From IMG/VR virus record IMGVR_UViG_2700989169_000006: 8,988 nt of DNA. The stretch is one strand, 5' to 3'. The position numbers and the translations under genes were made by a program. This DNA is from a virus (taxonomy: Duplodnaviria; Heunggongvirae; Uroviricota; Caudoviricetes). Under the pieces are notes generated by a model that searched no databases, was not told the origin of the DNA, and worked only from the letters and a program-made list of their open reading frames with translations. This document shows, one piece after another, positions 1 to 8,976 of this stretch. How positions within the stretch are numbered: position 1 is the first letter of the stretch; each line of letters opens with the position of its first letter.

Positions 1-42
1 CAGATGGCTGCTTAAAAAAAGAACAAATGGTAGTGTCCGCTA

Positions 43-366
43 TTGCCAGTACACCTCAAACTACTCATTGCCAGATGGGAACTGACCGCAGAACAGGCTG
101 TCGCACAGCAGTTAAAAAATCAGGTGTCAAAAGGAAATCTTATCGATACCGGATTTTGTATTTTTGCCCTTAGTAAGCTGGCGATGGCTTTATCCAGTAC
201 GCTTGACTCCATTCCTTTGTCCATGCAACGACAGTTCCCGGATTTAACGCCGCGTCATATTGATCATCTGAAAATCCTTATTGCTAAGGGAGCGAATCAG
301 TGCGCGCGTGCGGGGGATAAATTACCGGATTTACTCGATGAATATATCAGAACAACAACTGAGTAA
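43..366 (+). CDS. nu1: Terminase small subunit (Nu1-like), C-terminal large-subunit-interaction region only; reading frame is closed upstream by stops at 13-15 and 31-33, so the N-terminal DNA-binding part is absent in this frame
   Basis: The translation (...FCIFALSKLAMALSSTLDSIPLSMQRQFPDLTPRHIDHLK...LPDLLDEYI) parallels the lambda Nu1 C-terminus as I recall it (...FCTFVLSRIAGEIASILDGLPLSVQRRFPELENRHVDFLK...IPGLLSEYI). The stop TAA at 364-366 overlaps the start of the downstream A homolog, as in lambda. The ORF-track start at 43 is a TTG, not an ATG. Confidence 0.7.
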   Translation: MPVHLKLLIARWELTAEQAVAQQLKNQVSKGNLIDTGFCIFALSKLAMALSSTLDSIPLSMQRQFPDLTPRHIDHLKILIAKGANQCARAGDKLPDLLDEYIRTTTE

Positions 367-2305
367 TATGATGGTGGCAGTCACTATCGCACTGCAGCCA
401 CTGGTCAGGGTATTGCCGGTGACGGCTGTAGAATGGGCCGATCAAAATTATTACCTGCCTAAAGAATCGTCATACGGTGAGGGGGAATGGAAAACGCTGC
501 AGTTTCAGGTCGCCATCATGAACTGCATGGGCAATGACGAGATTCGTACAGTTAACCTGATTAAATCTGCCCGTGTTGGTTATACAAAAATGGTGCTTGG
601 TGTGATCGGGTATTTTATTGAGCACAAATCCCGCAACACTCTTCTTTTTCAGCCGACGGACTCAGCTGCTGAAGATTTTATGAAGTCTCACGTGGAAGCA
701 ACAATTCGTGATGTTCCTTGCCTGAAAAAACTTTCTCCCTGGCTGGGCCGGAAACACCGGGATAATACGCTCACACTGAAGCGTTTTTCCTCTGGTGTGG
801 GGTTCTGGTGTTTGGGTGGTGCTGCTGCCAAAAACTACCGTGAAAAATCTGTCGATGTGGTCTGCTATGACGAACTCTCCTCGTTTGAACCGGATGTGGA
901 AAAAGAAGGTTCGCCAACACTGCTTGGCGATAAACGTATTGAAGGTTCGGTATGGCCAAAATCCATACGCGGTTCAACGCCAAAAATTAAAGGCTCCTGT
1001 CAGATTGAAAAAGCTGCGAATGAATCTGCGCATTTCATGCGGTTTTATGTCCCTTGCCCTCATTGCGGGGAGGAGCAGTATCTGAAGTTTGGCGATGATG
1101 CGACGTCGTTTGGCCTGAAATGGGAGAAGGGTAAACCGGAAACGGTGTATTACCTGTGTGAACATAATGGCTGCGTGATCCGTCAGTCTGAACTTGATCA
1201 GACCGGGGGGCGCTGGATTTGTGACAATACCGGGATGTGGACGTGTGACGGTCTGACGTTTTTCAGTGCTTCGGGTAATGAAATTCCGCCGCCGCGCTCC
1301 ATCACTTTCCATATATGGACGGCGTACAGTCCGTTCACCACCAGGGTACAGATAGTCTGTGACTGGCTGGATGCACTGAAAGATCCCAACGGCGTGAAAA
1401 CTTTTGTGAACACCACGCTGGGCGAGACCTGGGAAGAGGCCGTGGGCGAAAAACTCGATCACCAGGTACTGATGGATAAGGTTGTGCCTTACACGGCAAC
1501 GGTGCCTGTCCGGGTGGTTTATCTGACGGCGGGCATTGACTCGCAGCGAAACCGTTTTGAGATGTATGTCTGGGGGTGGGCTCCGGGAGAGGAAGCCTTT
1601 CTGGTGGATAAAATCATCATCATGGGACGTCCTGATGAGGAAGAGACGCTGTTACGTGTGGATGCGGCGATCAATAAAAAATACCGCCATGCAGACGGTA
1701 CCGAAATGACCATTTCCCGTGTCTGCTGGGATATCGGGGGGATCGATGGCGAAATCGTGTATCAGAGGTCAAAAAAACACGGTATTTTCCGGGTACTGCC
1801 GGTAAAAGGTGCCTCTGTCTATGGCAAGCCGGTGATCACCATGCCGAAAACCCGCAATCAGCGGGGTGTGTATCTGTGTGAGGTGGGGACGGATACCGCA
1901 AAAGAAATTCTCTATGCCCGAATGAAGGCCGATCCCACCCCTGTGAATGAGGCCACATCGTATGCCATCCGCTTTCCTGATAATCCGGAGATTTTTTCGC
2001 AGACAGAGGCACAACAACTGGTGGCGGAGGAACTGGTGGAAAAGTGGGAAAAAGGAAAGATGCGTCTGTTGTGGGATAACAAAAAGCGGCGTAACGAAGC
2101 GCTGGACTGCCTGGTGTATGCCTATGCGGCATTACGTGTGTCCGTGCAACGCTGGCAACTTGATCTGGCTGGGGGNNNNNNNNNNNNNNNNNNNNNNNNN
2201 NNNNNNNNNNNNNNNNNNNNNNNNNNNNNNNNNNNNNNNNNNNNNNNNNNNNNNCTGCACAACCGACCCTTGAAGAACTGGCAGCGAAGCTGTCCGGAGG
2301 AGTGA
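338..2305 (+). CDS. A: Terminase large subunit (lambda gpA-like; ATPase/endonuclease)
   Basis: The long ORF 281..2305 contains an internal Met at 338 beginning MNISEQQLS..., matching the recalled lambda gpA N-terminus MNISNSQVN.... Many colinear motifs follow: TAVEWAD.NYYLPKES, KNYREKSVDV, DKRIEGSVWPKSIRGSTPK, CPHCGEEQYLKFGD, FVNTTLGETWE, YLTAGIDSQ, KKRRNEALDC. The C-terminus is interrupted by an N-run at 2176-2254, so the end and frame after the gap are uncertain. Confidence 0.93.
   Translation: MNISEQQLSNMMVAVTIALQPLVRVLPVTAVEWADQNYYLPKESSYGEGEWKTLQFQVAIMNCMGNDEIRTVNLIKSARVGYTKMVLGVIGYFIEHKSRNTLLFQPTDSAAEDFMKSHVEATIRDVPCLKKLSPWLGRKHRDNTLTLKRFSSGVGFWCLGGAAAKNYREKSVDVVCYDELSSFEPDVEKEGSPTLLGDKRIEGSVWPKSIRGSTPKIKGSCQIEKAANESAHFMRFYVPCPHCGEEQYLKFGDDATSFGLKWEKGKPETVYYLCEHNGCVIRQSELDQTGGRWICDNTGMWTCDGLTFFSASGNEIPPPRSITFHIWTAYSPFTTRVQIVCDWLDALKDPNGVKTFVNTTLGETWEEAVGEKLDHQVLMDKVVPYTATVPVRVVYLTAGIDSQRNRFEMYVWGWAPGEEAFLVDKIIIMGRPDEEETLLRVDAAINKKYRHADGTEMTISRVCWDIGGIDGEIVYQRSKKHGIFRVLPVKGASVYGKPVITMPKTRNQRGVYLCEVGTDTAKEILYARMKADPTPVNEATSYAIRFPDNPEIFSQTEAQQLVAEELVEKWEKGKMRLLWDNKKRRNEALDCLVYAYAALRVSVQRWQLDLAGXXXXXXXXXXXXXXXXXXXXXXXXXXXLHNRPLKNWQRSCPEE
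2176..2254. other. Run of 79 N (assembly gap or masked sequence) inside the 3' end of the terminase large subunit gene
   Basis: Literal n characters in the sequence. Confidence 1.
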
Positions 2306-2509
2306 ATGGTTACAGTCGCTGAACTGCAGGCGCTGCGTCAGGCGCGCCTTGATTTATTAACCGGTAAACGGGTTGTGTCGGTACAGAAAGACGGTCGCAG
2401 GATCGAATATACGGCAGCGTCCCTGAATGAGCTTAACCGTGCGATCAACGATGCGGAGTCGGTTCTGGGTACGACCCGACGCCGCCGACCGCTGGGAGTG
2501 AGGTTATGA
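2306..2509 (+). CDS. W: Head-tail joining / head completion protein (lambda gpW-like)
   Basis: The 67-aa product contains LLTGKRVVSVQKDGRRIEYTAASLNEL, matching recalled lambda gpW ([27 protein letters not shown]). Its ATG at 2306 directly follows the A stop (TGAATG), and its TGA at 2507-2509 overlaps the B start. Confidence 0.9.
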   Translation: MVTVAELQALRQARLDLLTGKRVVSVQKDGRRIEYTAASLNELNRAINDAESVLGTTRRRRPLGVRL

Positions 2510-3561
2510 AACGAACGCCTGTCCTGATTGATGTGAACGGCGTTCCGCTTCGTGAGAGTCTCAGCTACAACGGAGGCGGCGCAGGATTTGGCGGGCAAAT
2601 GGCAGAGTGGTTACCACCGGCGCAGAGTGCCGATGCGGCCCTGTTGCCTGCATTGCGTCTGGGGAATGCCCGGGCAGATGATCTGGTGCGCAATAACGGT
2701 ATCGCGGCTAATGCGGTGGCCCTGCATAAGGATCATATCGTCGGGCACATGTTTCTTATCAGCTACCGTCTGAACTGGCGTTGGCTGGGGATGCGGGAGA
2801 CCACGGCAAAAAGTTTTGTCGGGGAGGTGGAAGCAGCCTGGTCGGAATACGCAGAAGGAATGTTTGGCGAGATCGACGTGGAAGGGAAACGCACGTTTAC
2901 GGAATTTATCCGTGAAGGGGTGGGCGTGCATGCCTTTAACGGCGAAATCTTTGTGCAGCCGGTCTGGGATACGGAAACCACGCAGTTATTCCGTACGCGT
3001 TTTAAAGCCGTGAGTCCGAAACGGGTGGACACGCCAGGACACGGTATGGGGAACCACTTTCTGCGGGCCGGGGTTGAGGTCGATCGGTATGGGCGGGCGA
3101 TTGCGTACCATATCTGTGAGGATGATTTTCCGTTCTCTGGTGCCGGACGCTGGGAGCGGATCCCGCGTGAGCTTCCCACCGGGCGTCCGGCCATGCTGCA
3201 TATTTTTGAGCCGGTGGAGGACGGGCAGACCCGTGGGGCTAATCAGTTTTACAGCGTAATGGAGCGGATGAAGATGCTGGACTCCCTGCAGGCCACGCAG
3301 CTTCAGTCGGCCATTGTGAAGGCGATGTATGCAGCCACAATCGAAAGTGAACTTGATACCGAAAAGGCATTTGAATATATCGCGGGGGCACCGCAAGGTC
3401 AGCAGGATAATCCGCTTATTAATATTCTGGAGAAGTTCACCCGCTGGTATGACACGAATAACGTGACGCTGGGCGGTGTTAAAATTCCGCACCTTTTTTC
3501 CTGGCGATGCGCTGAACCTGCAGACAGCGCAGGATTCAGACAATGGATTTTCGGCGCTTGA
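2506..3561 (+). CDS. B: Portal protein (lambda gpB-like), N-terminal segment in frame 1; homology to gpB ends near 3497 where the frame breaks
   Basis: The translation shows GNARADDLVRNNG, HAFNGEIFVQ, SPKR, IPRELP, FEPVEDGQTRGANQFYSVMERMKMLDSLQATQLQSAIVKAMYAATIESELDT, matching recalled lambda gpB. After ...GGVKIPHLF the frame-1 translation (SWRCAEPADSAGFRQWIFGA) no longer resembles gpB. Confidence 0.85.
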   Translation: MKRTPVLIDVNGVPLRESLSYNGGGAGFGGQMAEWLPPAQSADAALLPALRLGNARADDLVRNNGIAANAVALHKDHIVGHMFLISYRLNWRWLGMRETTAKSFVGEVEAAWSEYAEGMFGEIDVEGKRTFTEFIREGVGVHAFNGEIFVQPVWDTETTQLFRTRFKAVSPKRVDTPGHGMGNHFLRAGVEVDRYGRAIAYHICEDDFPFSGAGRWERIPRELPTGRPAMLHIFEPVEDGQTRGANQFYSVMERMKMLDSLQATQLQSAIVKAMYAATIESELDTEKAFEYIAGAPQGQQDNPLINILEKFTRWYDTNNVTLGGVKIPHLFSWRCAEPADSAGFRQWIFGA

Positions 3562-4159
3562 ACAGGCGCTGCTGCGGTATATTGCAGCCGGTCTTGGCGT
3601 TTCCTACGAACAGTTGTCCCGTGATTACTCGAAGGTCAGTTACTCAAGTGCCCGCGCCTCCGCCAATGAGTCGTGGCGCTATTTTATGGGGCGGCGAAAA
3701 TTTATTGCGGCCCGGCTGGCCACGCAGATGTTTTCCTGCTGGCTGGGAGGGGNNNNNNNNNNNNNNNNNNNNNNNNNNNNNNNNNNNNNNNNNNNNNNNN
3801 NNNNNNNNNNNNNNNNNNNNNNNNNNNNNNNNNNNNNNNNNNNNNNNNNNNNNNNNNNNNNNNNGGCGCGTTCAGCCTGGTCACGGGCAGAGTGGATTAG
3901 CTCCGGAAGAATGGCCATTGACGGGCTCAAGGAGGTCCAGGAATCGGTGATGCGCATTGAGGCCGGACTGAGCACGTATGAGAAAGAACTGGCACTGATG
4001 GGCGAAGATTATCAGGACATTTTCCGCCAGCAGGTCAGGGAATCCGCAGAGCGCGAAAAAGCCGGACTCTCACGTCCGGTGTGGATAGCCCAGGCGTATC
4101 AGCAGCAGATAGCGGAGAGTCGCAGGCCGGAAGAGGAGACAACATCACGTGAGACGTAA
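3476..4159 (+). CDS. B: Portal protein (lambda gpB-like), C-terminal segment in frame 2; its real continuation begins at about 3497, not at the GTG at 3476
   Basis: The translation PGDALNLQTAQDSDNGFSALEQALLRYIAAGLGVSYEQLSRDYSKVSYSSARASANESWRYFMGRRKF...SGRMAIDGLKEVQESVMRIEAGLSTYEKE matches the recalled lambda gpB C-terminal half. It is interrupted by an N-run at 3753-3864. Confidence 0.85.
   Translation: MLKFRTFFPGDALNLQTAQDSDNGFSALEQALLRYIAAGLGVSYEQLSRDYSKVSYSSARASANESWRYFMGRRKFIAARLATQMFSCWLGGXXXXXXXXXXXXXXXXXXXXXXXXXXXXXXXXXXXXXXARSAWSRAEWISSGRMAIDGLKEVQESVMRIEAGLSTYEKELALMGEDYQDIFRQQVRESAEREKAGLSRPVWIAQAYQQQIAESRRPEEETTSRET
3753..3864. other. Run of 112 N (assembly gap or masked sequence) inside the portal gene
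   Basis: Literal n characters in the sequence. Confidence 1.
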
Positions 4160-5687
4160 TCTTTCACATATTATCGCTGCGGCATTCAATGAGCCGCTGC
4201 TTCTGGAGCCCGCCTATGCGCGGGTTTTCTTTTGCGCGCTCGGGCGTGAGATGGGCGCAGCAAGCCTTTCGGTACCGCAACAGCAGGTACAGCTTGACGC
4301 TCCCGGGATGCTGGCTGAAACGGACGAGTACATGGCCGGAGGCAAACGACCTGCCCGTGTTTACCGGGTGGTGAACGGTATTGCTGTACTGCCGGTGACC
4401 GGCACGCTGGTACACCGGCTGGGTGGCATGCGGCCATTTTCCGGAATGACTGGCTATGACGGCATTGTCGCCTGTCTTCAGCAGGCAATGGCGGACACTC
4501 AGGTACGGGGCGTACTGCTGGACATTGACAGTTCTGGCGGGCAGGCCACCGGCGCGTTTGACTGCGCTGACATGATTTACCGTCTCCGGCAGCTGAAGCC
4601 TGTCTGGGCACTGTGCAATGACACGGCCTGTTCAGCCGCCATGTTACTGGCATCGGCCTGCTCCCGACGGCTGGTTACCCAGACATCCCGTATCGGCTCC
4701 ATTGGGGTGATGATGGGCCATGTCAGCTATGCCGGTCATCTGGCACAGGCCGGTGTGGATATCACGCTGATTTACGCCGGATCGCACAAGGTGGATGGCA
4801 ATCAGTTTGAATCCCTGCCAGCAAAGGTTCGCCAGGACATGCAGCAGCGCATTGATGCGGCGCGCCGGATGTTTGCTGAAAAAGTGGCGATGTATACCGG
4901 TTTATCTGTGGATGCGGTTATGGGAACAGAGGCCGCCGTTTTTGAAGGTCAGTCCGGTATTGAGGCCGAACTGGCGGATGAATTAATCAATGCGTCGGAC
5001 GCCATCAGCGTGATGGCTGCGACGCTGAACACACACGATACAGGAGGCACTATGCCGCAATTAACTGCAACGGAGGCTGCCGCGCAGGAGAACCAGCGAG
5101 TGATGGGGATCCTGACGTGTCAGGAAGCGAAAGGACGTGAACAACTGGCCACGATGCTGGCAGGGCAACAGGGTATGAGCGTTGAGCAGGCCCGGGCGAT
5201 TCTGGCCGTGGCGGCACCGCAACAATCTGGTGTATCTGCGCAGAGTGAAGCCGATCGCATTATGGCATGTGAAGAGGCGAAAGGACGTGAACAACTGGCG
5301 GCAACGCTGGCGGCGATGCCGGAGATGACGGTGGAAAAAGCCCGTCCGATTCTGGCTGCTTCACCGCAGGCGAATGCCGGACCCTCACTTCGTGATCAGA
5401 TTATGGCCCTGGATGAGGCAAAAGGGGCAGAGGCGCAGGCTGAAAAACTGGCGGCCTGTCCGGGGATGACCGTGGAGAATGCCCGGGCTGTACTGGCGGC
5501 AGCCTCANNNNNNNNNNNNNNNNNNNNNNNNNNNNNNNNNNNNNNNNNNNNNNNNNNNNNNNNNNNNNNNNNNNNNNNNNNNNNNNNNNNNNNNNNNNNN
5601 NNNNNNNNNNNNNNNNNNNNNNNNNNNNNNNNNNNNNNNNNNNNNNNNNNNNNNNNNNNNNNNNNNNNNNNNNTGATGCGGACGTGA
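4149..5687 (+). CDS. C: Prohead protease / minor capsid protein C (lambda gpC-like, S49/ClpP-type peptidase) with the scaffold (Nu3-like) region in its C-terminal part; 3' end uncertain because of the N-run at 5508-5673
   Basis: The N-terminal region ...AAFNEPLLLEPAYARVFFCAL..., NGIAVLPVTGTLV, GAFDCADMI, KPVWAL, SRRLVTQTSRIGSIGVMM, ITLIYAGSHKVDGN and AARRMFAEKVAMYTGLSV match recalled lambda gpC. The start is a GTG at 4149, overlapping the portal end by 11 nt, with GAGGAG upstream at about 4132-4137. Confidence 0.88.
   Translation: MRRNLSHIIAAAFNEPLLLEPAYARVFFCALGREMGAASLSVPQQQVQLDAPGMLAETDEYMAGGKRPARVYRVVNGIAVLPVTGTLVHRLGGMRPFSGMTGYDGIVACLQQAMADTQVRGVLLDIDSSGGQATGAFDCADMIYRLRQLKPVWALCNDTACSAAMLLASACSRRLVTQTSRIGSIGVMMGHVSYAGHLAQAGVDITLIYAGSHKVDGNQFESLPAKVRQDMQQRIDAARRMFAEKVAMYTGLSVDAVMGTEAAVFEGQSGIEAELADELINASDAISVMAATLNTHDTGGTMPQLTATEAAAQENQRVMGILTCQEAKGREQLATMLAGQQGMSVEQARAILAVAAPQQSGVSAQSEADRIMACEEAKGREQLAATLAAMPEMTVEKARPILAASPQANAGPSLRDQIMALDEAKGAEAQAEKLAACPGMTVENARAVLAAASXXXXXXXXXXXXXXXXXXXXXXXXXXXXXXXXXXXXXXXXXXXXXXXXXXXXXXXXMRT
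5052..5687 (+). CDS. nu3: Scaffolding protein (Nu3-like) from an in-frame internal start within C; 3' end uncertain (gap)
   Basis: An in-frame ATG at 5052 is preceded by a strong AGGAGG at 5042-5047. The downstream sequence (ENQRVMGILTCQEAKGREQLA...PGMTVE.AR.ILAAA.PQ) parallels the recalled lambda Nu3 region (ENSRIMGILNCEEAHGREEQARVLAETPGMTVKTARRILAAAPQ). Lambda is known to express Nu3 from an internal in-frame start in C. Confidence 0.5.
   Translation: MPQLTATEAAAQENQRVMGILTCQEAKGREQLATMLAGQQGMSVEQARAILAVAAPQQSGVSAQSEADRIMACEEAKGREQLAATLAAMPEMTVEKARPILAASPQANAGPSLRDQIMALDEAKGAEAQAEKLAACPGMTVENARAVLAAASXXXXXXXXXXXXXXXXXXXXXXXXXXXXXXXXXXXXXXXXXXXXXXXXXXXXXXXXMRT
5097..5507 (+). repeat. Tandem in-frame repeat array (at least 3 copies, about 141-159 bp each) encoding the Nu3/C C-terminal motif; the array runs into the N-gap
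   Basis: The 23-mer gcgaaaggacgtgaacaactggc occurs identically at 5127-5149 and 5277-5299, exactly 150 bp apart. The protein-level units are RVMGILTCQEAKGREQLATMLAGQQGMSVEQARAILAVAAPQQ / RIMACEEAKGREQLAATLAAMPEMTVEKARPILAASPQ / IMALDEAKGAEAQAEKLAACPGMTVENARAVLAAAS. Confidence 0.75.
5508..5673. other. Run of 166 N (assembly gap or masked sequence) at the 3' end of C/Nu3, directly after the tandem repeat array
   Basis: Literal n characters in the sequence. Confidence 1.
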
Positions 5688-5746
5688 AAATGCTCATGGC
5701 CATGCCATGAAGTCAGTGCTGACCATCAATATGAGGTTTTTACAAT

Positions 5747-6094
5747 ATGGTAACGAAAACCATCACTGAACAGCGTGCGGAAGTACGTATTTTTGCCGGT
5801 AATGATCCGGCCCATACCGCCACAGGCTGCAGCGGGATTTCCTCGGCAACACCGGCTCTGACGCCCCTGATGCTGGATGAGGATACCGGGAAACTGGTGG
5901 TCTGGGACGGACAGAAGGCAGGCCATGTGGTTGGCATACTGGTACTGCCGCTTGAAGGTACAGAGACGGTGCTGACGTATTACAAGTCGGGGACCTTTGC
6001 GACGGAGGCCATCCACTGGCCTGAGAGAGTGGATACACACAAAAAGGCGAATGCCTTTGCCGGCAGTGCCCTGAGTCACGCAGCGCTGCCGTAA
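5747..6094 (+). CDS. D: Head decoration protein (lambda gpD-like)
   Basis: The 115-aa product contains NDPAHTAT, TPLMLD, KLVVWDG, YYKSGTF, WPE and AFAG, matching recalled lambda gpD. GAGG lies about 10 nt upstream of the ATG. Confidence 0.92.
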   Translation: MVTKTITEQRAEVRIFAGNDPAHTATGCSGISSATPALTPLMLDEDTGKLVVWDGQKAGHVVGILVLPLEGTETVLTYYKSGTFATEAIHWPERVDTHKKANAFAGSALSHAALP

Positions 6095-6151
6095 CATTTT
6101 ATCAGGTCACTGCGGTAGCCTGACTGATTTCTGAATGAAAGGAACTGATTT

Positions 6152-7180
6152 ATGGGATTGTTTACGACCCGCCAGTTACTCGGTTATACCGAACAAAAAG
6201 TTAAATTTCGTGCGCTGTTTCTGGAGCTGTTTTTCCGCCGTACGGTGAATTTCCATACCGAAGAGGTAATGCTGGACAAAATTACCGGAAAAACGCCGGT
6301 GGCGGCCTATGTCTCCCCGGTTGTTGAAGGAAAGGTGTTGCGTCACCGTGGCGGTGAAACTCGTGTACTGCGCCCGGGCTACGTTAAGCCGAAACACGAA
6401 TTTAATTACCAGCAGGCGGTGGAGCGTCTTCCCGGTGAAGATCCGGCCCAGCTGAACGGCCCGGCTTACCGTCGCCTGCGTATCATCACCGATAACCTCA
6501 AACAGGAAGAGCACGCCATTGTCCAGGTGGAAGAGATGCAGGCGGTGAATGCCGTGCTGTATGGCAAATACACCATGGAAGGAGAGCAGTTTGAAACTGT
6601 TGAGGTCGATTTTGGCCGGTCGGTGGGAAATAACATTACGCAGGCAGGAGGGACGGAGTGGAGCGCTCAGGACCGCGATACCTTTGATCCGACGCATGAT
6701 CTGGATGCGTACTGTGATTTTGCTTCCGGCACCATCAATATTGCCATTATGGATGGTAAGGTCTGGCGTCTGCTGAATGGCTTTAAGCTGTTCCGCGAAA
6801 AACTGGATACCCGTCGTGGCTCAAATTCACAGCTGGAAACGGCAGTGAAAGACCTGGGGGCGGTGGTGTCCTTCAAAGGGTATTATGGTGATCTGGCAAT
6901 CGTGGTGGCAAAAACGTCCTATGTGGCAGAGGACGGTACCGAAAAACGTTATCTGCCGGACGGCACACTGGTACTGGGAAATACGGCCGCAGAGGGTATT
7001 CGTTGCTACGGTGCCATTCAGGATGCGCAGGCATTGTCTGAAGGCGTGGTGGCGTCTTCCCGTTATCCGAAACACTGGCTGACCGTGGGTGATCCGGCGC
7101 GTGAATTCACCATGACGCAGTCCGCGCCGCTGATGGTGCTGCCGGATCCGGATGAGTTTGTGGTGGTGCAGGTGAAATAA
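6152..7180 (+). CDS. E: Major capsid protein (lambda gpE-like)
   Basis: The 342-aa product is colinear with recalled lambda gpE: PGYVKPKHE, AIVQVEEMQAVNAVLYGKYTMEGE, NNITQAGGTEWS, EKLDTRRGSNSQLETAVKDLG, LPDGTLVLGNT, GDPAREFTMTQSAPLMVLPDPDEFVVVQ. AAAGGA lies upstream of the ATG. Confidence 0.95.
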   Translation: MGLFTTRQLLGYTEQKVKFRALFLELFFRRTVNFHTEEVMLDKITGKTPVAAYVSPVVEGKVLRHRGGETRVLRPGYVKPKHEFNYQQAVERLPGEDPAQLNGPAYRRLRIITDNLKQEEHAIVQVEEMQAVNAVLYGKYTMEGEQFETVEVDFGRSVGNNITQAGGTEWSAQDRDTFDPTHDLDAYCDFASGTINIAIMDGKVWRLLNGFKLFREKLDTRRGSNSQLETAVKDLGAVVSFKGYYGDLAIVVAKTSYVAEDGTEKRYLPDGTLVLGNTAAEGIRCYGAIQDAQALSEGVVASSRYPKHWLTVGDPAREFTMTQSAPLMVLPDPDEFVVVQVK

Positions 7181-7186
7181 TCCGTG

Positions 7187-7213
7187 AGCGGGAGCTAAAT
7201 GCTCCCGTTTTTC
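7187..7213 (+). terminator. Putative intrinsic (Rho-independent) terminator or attenuator hairpin directly downstream of the major capsid gene
   Basis: Perfect inverted repeat cgggagc (7189-7195) / gctcccg (7201-7207) with a 5-nt loop (taaat), followed by TTTTT (7208-7212), 7 nt after the E stop codon. Confidence 0.45.
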
Positions 7214-7231
7214 ATTCAATCAGGAGCGGGT

Positions 7232-7618
7232 ATGGCTACGAAAGAAGAAAACCTGAAACGTCTTTGTGAGCTGGCTGAGAGGCTGGGGCGTGAACCGGAT
7301 GTCTCCGGTAGTGCGGCAGATATTGCGCAGCGAGTGGCGGAACTGGAGGAAGAGCTTGGAGATGCGGGGGAGGTCGCAGAGCCGGATACGTACTCACCAT
7401 CGAAAGATGATCCGACCGCGCATAAAGGCGAGTCAGTTCCTGAACAGCCAGGCATTGTTACCGGAGACGAAACGGGGCAGGTTACGGTGGTGGCACTGGC
7501 GACACTGCATACAAAATGTAATGGTTCAGTGATATTTGTTTCACCGGGAACGTCGTTTCGTGTTTCTGCTGAGGTGGCTGCCAGCATGGCGGCAGGTGGT
7601 CTGGCAAAAAGGCAGTAA
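7232..7618 (+). CDS. FI: DNA packaging protein FI (lambda gpFI-like)
   Basis: The C-terminal region VTVVALATLHT...VSPGTSFRVSAEVAASMAAGGLAKRQ matches recalled lambda gpFI (VTVVALVKLHT...VLPGTAFRVSAGVAAEMTERGLARMQ), and the N-terminal region has the same acidic/alanine-rich character. The start is chosen at ATG 7232, preceded by AGGAG at 7222-7226; the ORF-track start at 7199 lies inside the terminator region and is less likely. Confidence 0.85.
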   Translation: MATKEENLKRLCELAERLGREPDVSGSAADIAQRVAELEEELGDAGEVAEPDTYSPSKDDPTAHKGESVPEQPGIVTGDETGQVTVVALATLHTKCNGSVIFVSPGTSFRVSAEVAASMAAGGLAKRQ

Positions 7619-7629
7619 CAGGAGATGTC

Positions 7630-8007
7630 GTGGACGGTTTCGATAATCTGTTTGATGCTGCGCTTGCCGGTGTCAATGAAGTCATTCTCCGTGATATGGG
7701 GATCAGCGCCGTCATTACGTCCGGAGAACTTGAGGGGACACACCTGACAGGGGTTTTTGATGATCCCGAAAGTATTTCTTTTGTTGCCGGGGGGATCCGG
7801 CTTGAGGATTCCTCACCGTGCCTGTTTGTGAAAACGGCAGATATATCGCAGTTACGCCGTCAGGATACGTTAACTATCGGGGATGATTCTTTCTTTGTGG
7901 ATCGTATTACTCCGGATGACGGGGGATGCTGTTATATCCGGTTAAGGCGGGGCAGTCCTGCCCCACAGAATAATGCCAGAATGAGGCGATATGATGAAGG
8001 GACTTGA
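7630..8007 (+). CDS. FII: Head-tail connector / head completion protein FII (lambda gpFII-like)
   Basis: DGFDNLFDAA, GVFDDPESISF, SSPCLFVKT, QLRRQDTLTIGDDSFFVDRITPDDGG match recalled lambda gpFII (ADFDNLFDAA, GVFDDPENISY, SSPSLFVRT, QLRRGDTLTIGEENFWVDRVSPDDGG). The start is a GTG at 7630 with GGAG at 7621-7624. Confidence 0.88.
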   Translation: MDGFDNLFDAALAGVNEVILRDMGISAVITSGELEGTHLTGVFDDPESISFVAGGIRLEDSSPCLFVKTADISQLRRQDTLTIGDDSFFVDRITPDDGGCCYIRLRRGSPAPQNNARMRRYDEGT

Positions 8008-8578
8008 GAATGCCATCCGCAATCTGAACAGCCTCGATACCCGCATGGTGCCACAGACCAGCGCATGGGCGGTAAACCGTGTGGCGGCAAAGATTGTTTC
8101 TGTCGCCACACGGCAGGTTGCGCAGAATACCGTTGCCGGGGATAACCAGGTGAAAGGTATTCCCCTGAAAACGGTCAGGGAGCGTGTCAGGCTGCTTAAA
8201 GCCAGCCCCTCAGGAAAAATGTATGCCCGCATGCGTGTTAACCGGGGTAACCTGCCCGCCATTAAGCTGGGTACCGCACAGGTCAGACTGGCCCGCTCCC
8301 GGCATGGCAGCAACTCACGTCATCGTGGCAGCGTACTGAAAGTGGGGAAATACCTTTTCCGGGATGCGTTTATTCAGCAACTGGCGAATGGTCGCTGGCA
8401 TGTGATGCGGCGTATTGACGGCAAAAATCGTTACCCCATTGATGTGGTGAAAATCCCGATGTCCGGACCGCTGACACAGGCATTTGAAGATGCCCGCGAC
8501 CGCATCATTGCTGCGGAAATGCCGAAACAGCTGGGGTATGCCCTGAAACAACAACTGAGGTTACATCTGAGTAAATGA
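7991..8578 (+). CDS. Z: Tail assembly/completion protein Z (lambda gpZ-like)
   Basis: KGLENAI, VNRVA, AFIQQLANGRWHVMRRIDGKNRYPIDVVKIPM and LGYALKQQLR match recalled lambda gpZ (KGLEQAV, INRVA, AFIQQLKNGRWHVMQRVAGKNRYPIDVVKIPM, LGYALQHQLR). It overlaps the FII 3' end; the start is ATG 7991 or 7994. Confidence 0.88.
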   Translation: MMKGLENAIRNLNSLDTRMVPQTSAWAVNRVAAKIVSVATRQVAQNTVAGDNQVKGIPLKTVRERVRLLKASPSGKMYARMRVNRGNLPAIKLGTAQVRLARSRHGSNSRHRGSVLKVGKYLFRDAFIQQLANGRWHVMRRIDGKNRYPIDVVKIPMSGPLTQAFEDARDRIIAAEMPKQLGYALKQQLRLHLSK

Positions 8579-8976
8579 ACCGACACACACAAATCCGTCA
8601 GAGCGTGCTGGCACGCCTTCGGGAACAGTGTGGAGACAGCGCCACGTTTTTTGACGGGCTTCCGGCATTTATTGATGCGCAGGAACTGCCCGCCGTGGCG
8701 GTGTGGCTGAGTGATGCGCAGTACACCGGAAAAATGACGGATGAGGACGACTGGCAGGCTGTTCTGCATATTGCCGTTTTCGTCCGTGCACAGGCGCCGG
8801 ATTCTGAGCTGGATACGTGGATGGAGAACACCATATTTCCGGCCATGAAGGATATTCCGGTGCTTTCCGGACTCATCGACACCATGATCCCACTCGGTTT
8901 TAACTATCAACGTGATAATGAGATGGCCACCTGGGCGATGGCGGAAATCACGTACCAGATCACGTACACGAATTAA
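8575..8976 (+). CDS. U: Tail terminator / tail tube completion protein U (lambda gpU-like)
   Basis: ATFFDG, PAVAVWL, AQYTG, PDSELDTWME and ITYQITY match recalled lambda gpU (ATFFDG, PAVAVYL, AEYTG, PDSELDAWME, LTYVITY). Its ATG overlaps the Z stop (ATGA). Confidence 0.9.
   Translation: MNRHTQIRQSVLARLREQCGDSATFFDGLPAFIDAQELPAVAVWLSDAQYTGKMTDEDDWQAVLHIAVFVRAQAPDSELDTWMENTIFPAMKDIPVLSGLIDTMIPLGFNYQRDNEMATWAMAEITYQITYTN

Follow-up and report, generated by a model that had tools for sequence, protein, structure and literature searches.

The window analysed here, an 8,988-nucleotide stretch of viral DNA, contains a portal gene whose reading frame breaks at a run of six T residues (T6). The question raised by this locus is whether the break is a true mutation, an error in a poor draft contig, or a site at which a full-length portal protein is made by some form of frameshifting. 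The answer depends on what the gene becomes when one T is removed, on how the run is read in independent assemblies of the same element and in its relatives, and on the state of the genes around it.

Gene organization of the window

The window holds the head module of a phage-21/lambda-like prophage, from a remnant of Nu1 to U (Table 1). Both here and in related loci the portal lies between gpW and the S49 protease/scaffold gene, the position that it has in a lambda-like head module, and the gene order Nu1-A-W-B-C-D-E-FI-FII-Z-U of phage 21 and lambda is also the order in the window.

Table 1. Features of the head module, in window coordinates
Feature	Position	Strand	Evidence and remarks
IS600 right end; window begins inside the IS	1-57	+	continues the 1,264-nt element at L006 2346-3609
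Small terminase gene, 3' remnant (Nu1/gp1-like)	58-366	+	PF07471; first 201 nt (67 codons) absent
Large terminase gene (gpA-like)	338-2305	+	interrupted by N-run 2176-2254; 636 aa gene call
gpW-like head-tail joining gene, intact, 67 aa	2306-2509	+	ORF list; PF02831 in matching gene calls
Portal pseudogene, 5' ORF, frame 1	2506-3561	+	351 aa; PF05136; translation
T6 homopolymer with one-base insertion causing the frameshift	3494-3499	+	T5 or TTTTC in intact relatives
Portal pseudogene, 3' part, frame 2	3500-4159	+	translation; PF05136; contains N-run 3753-3864
S49 protease/scaffold gene (gpC/Nu3-like), 501 aa	4149-5710	+	PF01343; = L006 7584-9089; contains N-run 5508-5673
Head decoration gene, intact, 115 aa	5747-6094	+	PF02924
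Major capsid gene, intact, 342 aa	6152-7180	+	PF03864
FI homologue, open	7232-7618	+	PF14000
FII homologue, open	7630-8007	+	PF05354
Z homologue, open	7994-8578	+	PF06763
U homologue, open	8575-8976	+	PF06141

The contig is poor near its gaps, and suspicion of a homopolymer within it is reasonable. Its three N-runs (2176-2254, 3753-3864, and 5508-5673) represent real assembly gaps of the wrong length, being 57, 60, and 56 nt longer, respectively, than the real sequence. G-rich miscalls precede two of them: GGGG is found at 2172-2175 where the reference has TGCA, and GAGGGG at 3747-3752 where it has AAGAGG. Because the lengths of the N-runs are wrong, the protease gene falsely appears to stop at 5687 instead of at 5710, its real stop. 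The T6 run itself is ~250 nt away from the nearest gap.

At the far end of the window, the U gene exists in two types, one shared by the window, L006 (a gap-free copy of the locus, described below), and L009, and the other found in Shigella flexneri 2457T and L007. The two types differ by 22 substitutions within ~240 nt (8691-8928), and the segment of ~3 kb that precedes this patch (5674-8690) is nearly identical between them. The cluster looks like a patch introduced by recombination or gene conversion from another lambdoid prophage. Substitutions among the Shigella copies are few, and most of them fall inside this one patch.

The break in the portal reading frame

There are exactly six T residues at the site, in the local context ...ccg cac ctt ttt tcc tgg... 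(cac ctt ttt tcc spans 3490-3501). In frame 1 the portal ORF reads ...GGVKIPHLF and then, from 3499, continues for 21 unrelated, out-of-frame residues to a stop, giving it the C-terminus ...GGVKIPHLFSWRCAEPADSAGFRQWIFGA. The portal sequence is taken up again in frame 2 as (F)FPGDALNLQTAQDSDNGFSALEQ... and runs to a stop at 4159; the mechanical ORF that contains this second part begins at a GTG at 3476. In Pfam, the profile of the lambda-family portal, PF05136, is covered from position 2 to position 288 by the first ORF and from position 288 to position 354 by the second (the latter match being taken on the gap-free copy L006). Since the two halves meet at profile position 288, the break lies inside one continuous domain. 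An earlier note on this DNA had placed a switch from frame 1 to frame 2 at this run, and the sequence and both translations bear this out. No single uninterrupted portal reading frame is present, and because the frame is broken at T6, the locus is a portal pseudogene rather than a portal gene.

The effect of the sixth T was assessed by deleting one T in L006. Its removal restores an open portal ORF of 1,593 nt, encoding 530 aa. The restored protein is a full-length match to the family (326.5 bits, E = 2.8e-97, profile positions 2-354 of 354). It differs by 2 residues from the intact portal of the prophage in E. coli FDAARGOS_943, and it shares 61% identity with lambda gpB, whose HLMPGD falls opposite HLFPGD in the protein alignment. 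The earlier note had anticipated both this parallel and a single ORF for a T5 allele, and in these respects it was correct; its estimate of ~550 aa was too long, since only ~52 real bases belong where the 112-N run lies (3753-3864). Among known systems, the portal of phage 21, gp4, has the same length as the restored ORF (530 aa) and is near-identical to it in the protein alignment, and at the DNA level the phage 21 portal is ~93% identical to that of the window. Unlike gp4 and gpB, however, the gene in the window has a one-base insertion and yields only a 351-aa N-terminal fragment, while its C-terminal piece is left untranslated or is called separately.

Relatives outside Shigella

The nearest relatives of the locus are E. 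coli prophages, which have T5 at the site and 0-1 mismatches over 1,492 nt around it. These include the intact portal of the FDAARGOS_943 prophage (WP_197939909.1) and the allele of E. coli CFSAN029787, both of which have the same neighbour genes as the window; the two prophages differ from it in having T5, in having a full small terminase gene, and in keeping the region upstream of that gene. Functional phage 21 has TTTTC at the site. The earlier note had proposed a comparison with the portals of related prophages, and when this is done, near-identical E. coli T5 alleles prove to be in frame at this position. As in a pseudogene, then, the frame in the window is disrupted relative to intact, near-identical orthologues. 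No match to the T6 allele at 100% was found in 5,426 complete E. coli genomes. (It may be added that the portal of CFSAN029787 [L001 4707-6298] has T5 and yet is annotated as frameshifted at another, downstream position. Its annotation covers 1,592 nt, with ORFs at 4707-6089 and 5873-6298, and represents either a different lesion or an assembly error.)

The T6 allele in Shigella assemblies

In Shigella the picture is different. The prophage is common to essentially all S. flexneri genomes, and each of the 12 independently assembled Shigella-type loci that were fetched reads T6, among them Sanger-finished S. flexneri 2457T and several complete genomes from long reads. A public assembly collection indexes the truncated product, with exactly the same 351 aa, in 2,587 blocks, and at least 1000 contigs carry it; complete genomes with this protein include AE014073 (2457T), CP007037, CP026765, CP026792, LR213452, and CM001474. 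The protein has been deposited as AAN42336.1 (strain 301), AAP16213.1 (2457T), ABF04804.1, and ADA73063.1, and the C-terminal piece as AAN42337.2 (strain 301) and AAP16214.1 (2457T). The window itself is 100% identical over its four non-N segments to L006 (GCA_008973575.1, a Shigella-type chromosome contig), and these segments are 99.3-100% identical to 2457T (AE014073, L012) and to other complete S. flexneri genomes. Within the portal region its DNA is 100% identical to that of 2457T, and what the window holds is a draft version of that locus, with gaps. Furthermore, S. flexneri 301 and 2457T have a split 'head-tail preconnector gp5' pair, each piece of which agrees with its counterpart in the window at every amino acid, which identifies them as the same locus; the locus is thus already known, as a split gp5 CDS pair, from published S. 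flexneri genomes. In the NCBI annotations of three complete genomes the portal interval has no called protein, which is consistent with pseudogene status.

These observations bear directly on the possibility that the extra T is a homopolymer error in a low-quality, gapped contig and that the real gene is an intact T5 portal, an explanation that the earlier note had put forward. The window does have three N-runs of the wrong length and miscalled G-rich edges, and a T5 version of exactly the same protein does exist in 20 S. flexneri contigs that were read, namely one complete genome (CP037996.1) and a group of Logan assemblies. (The public 'intact' S. flexneri portal is WP_134799197.1 / QBQ21922.1.) However, an artefact should be irreproducible in independent, higher-quality assemblies, and here Sanger-finished and long-read complete genomes keep T6; the lesion is reproducible across assemblies and strains, and L006, an independent assembly, agrees with the window at every readable position. 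Moreover, it is the T5 contigs that show signs of error. When ten of them (L017-L026) were aligned to L006, 8 of the 10 had further one-base losses or indels elsewhere, mostly at G6, A6, A7, and T6 runs in the large terminase and FII regions, and the remaining 2 come from the same run series as the others. Losses of this kind are a hallmark of homopolymer under-calling. Because the same assemblies shorten other runs of at least 6 identical bases, their T5 calls are likely artefacts. The complete genome CP037996.1 also has other indels in addition to T5, which suggests a sequencing error there as well, and the public 'intact' portal is probably a sequencing artefact. An error in the window is therefore very improbable, and the recurrence of T6 in every fetched locus and on so many contigs refutes this explanation.

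Other lesions in the same element

The portal is not the only damaged gene of this prophage. The IS600 copy whose right end opens the window is 99.6% identical to an annotated 'IS3-like element IS600', and at its junction (57/58) it abuts nt 202 of the small terminase gene. Homology to the CFSAN029787 prophage resumes at L001 2315, corresponding to nt 202 of the small terminase gene of that prophage (2114-2623), and the Shigella loci lack L001 1109-2314. IS600 thus stands in place of ~1.2 kb of the E. coli prophage: the end of an Rz-like lysis gene, a DUF4406 gene, and the small terminase gene's upstream region together with its first 201 nt. By analogy with the annotation of phage 21, the lost upstream region would be where cos lies.

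The large terminase is also altered, with a gene call of 636 aa where phage 21 and other S. flexneri strains have 642 aa. In a 2457T-like sublineage, TGCTGGCGGCATCC has been changed to TGCAGTTGCATCC, with a net loss of 1 nt (L006 5724-5749 versus L007 5723-5749), which shifts the frame of the last ~30 codons and takes the protein from 642 to 636 aa. TGCAGTTGCATCC and GGATGCAACTGCA, which lies downstream, form a perfect 13-nt inverted repeat, the loop being CGCAA, and to judge from this arrangement the change looks like a quasi-palindrome templated mutation. In the window the site falls under the N-run at 2176-2254. The window matches the 2457T-like sublineage wherever it can be read, and, as there, its large terminase ORF ends at 2305, adjacent to the start codon of W; the unshifted gene overlaps W by 17 nt. 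Two further single-base indels (L002 coordinates 3192 and 3320) split the large terminase in L004, L005, L010, and L019, a sublineage that includes a genome labelled E. coli ECMA0423, the locus of which is Shigella-type. In some complete S. flexneri genomes (L027-L029, ~11900-16700), the tape-measure (H), L, or K genes have no protein calls, which suggests strain-specific pseudogenization. The element therefore carries further inactivating lesions in essential functions, as expected if its portal is a pseudogene.

Programmed frameshifting, slippage, and phase variation

A broken frame might still be productive if a functional full-length portal were made at the T run by a programmed +1 shift of the ribosome or by slippage during transcription. 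The site has some of the needed features. On CUU UUU UCC, tRNA-Phe could re-pair from UUU (3496-3498) to UUU (3497-3499), so that the codon itself is slippery, much as the CUU of the prfB-type +1 frameshift (CUU UGA C) permits re-pairing. The slipped product would have exactly the wild-type HLFPGD, with the junction peptide KIPHLFPGDALNLQ, and the 91 nt downstream of T6 fold somewhat better than shuffled sequences (z = -2.0). In addition, transcriptional slippage is used in S. flexneri where T runs are longer, such as that of mxiE. The likeness to prfB ends there, however. At T6 the A-site codon is UCC, which is neither an in-frame stop nor a rare or hungry codon, and no Shine-Dalgarno-like stimulator is present 3-15 nt upstream of the run (no GGAGG/AGGGGG-like motif within 15 nt). 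Unlike a prfB-type site, the shift is also not conserved in functional homologues. Where selection acts on the gene, as in phage 21, lambda, and intact E. coli prophages, the portal is in frame (T5 or TTTTC) and the shift is thus not kept, and the flanks are identical in the T5 relatives, so no dedicated frameshift signal has evolved. The downstream fold, with its z of -2.0, is unremarkable and is common to the in-frame T5 alleles. Efficient transcriptional slippage is a property of runs of about 8-9 nt or more, and T6 falls short of this length. Finally, the element has no cos and no Nu1 N-terminus, so that a portal would have nothing to package. In the titles and abstracts returned by a full-text literature search, neither the locus nor a programmed frameshift in a lambdoid portal gene was found. 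A designed frameshift or slippage mechanism was rejected on the strength of the nonconserved shift, the missing stimulator, and a fold that is not specific to T6, and we give this explanation scarcely any chance; the earlier note, which had ranked it as the least likely, was right to do so.

A weaker version of the same idea would be that spontaneous +1 slippage, by the ribosome or by RNA polymerase, gives a little wild-type portal. Together with the open protease, decoration, capsid, and tail genes, this might produce some particles, to be used by another element or to function with another lambdoid prophage that supplies terminase and cos. Such a residual role would be highly unlikely. Even less probable, to the point of being negligible, is that the T run is a phase-variable contingency tract, with slipped-strand mispairing as the switch for the portal. 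S. flexneri assemblies do contain this allele in both forms, T5 and T6, but the split between them is extreme, with T6 on at least 1000 contigs (2,587 blocks) as against 20 contigs read with T5. The additional losses of one base at unrelated homopolymers in the T5 contigs point to platform error rather than biology. Contingency tracts are usually longer than six bases, for which the present run is short, and the element is otherwise non-functional.

Origin and fate of the insertion

The recurrence of T6 across assemblies, the T5 relatives, and the other lesions all support an inactivating frameshift in a decaying prophage, which the earlier note had offered as its other explanation. It is very probable that the portal gene of this phage-21/lambda-like prophage truly gained one base (T5 to T6), in a single event in an ancestor of the sampled S. 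flexneri strains, and that the insertion has since been passed on by vertical descent, leaving a pseudogene in a decaying element. Replication slippage would have inserted one T into the T5 run, and the insertion, which appears to have had a single origin, would then have become fixed in the ancestor of the sampled strains. Translation from the portal start would go out of frame after His-Leu-Phe and stop 21 codons later. The resulting 351-aa fragment, without the C-terminal ~200 residues, would not be expected to form a portal ring, and without a portal ring no procapsid should assemble; a loss of portal function is accordingly what the reading frame predicts. Either before or after this event, an IS600-associated deletion would have removed cos together with the N-terminal, DNA-binding part of the small terminase. 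The portal lesion presumably persists because there is no selection on the portal gene, and T6 would then be one among several marks of neutral decay. A counter-point is that the other head genes (C, D, E, FI, and FII), as well as Z and U, are still open, and the element is not heavily eroded. We attribute these open genes to a putative recent origin rather than to selection.

For the reading of draft viral sequence, the lesson is that a homopolymer frame break in a poor contig was real in this case, and that it is the rare 'repaired' T5 versions that are likely to be the errors. The biological weight of the finding is small: the split portal adds one pseudogene to those of the IS-rich, decaying prophages of Shigella flexneri. 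Nevertheless, the fixed T6, the IS600/Nu1 junction, and the terminase change could be markers of S. flexneri lineages.
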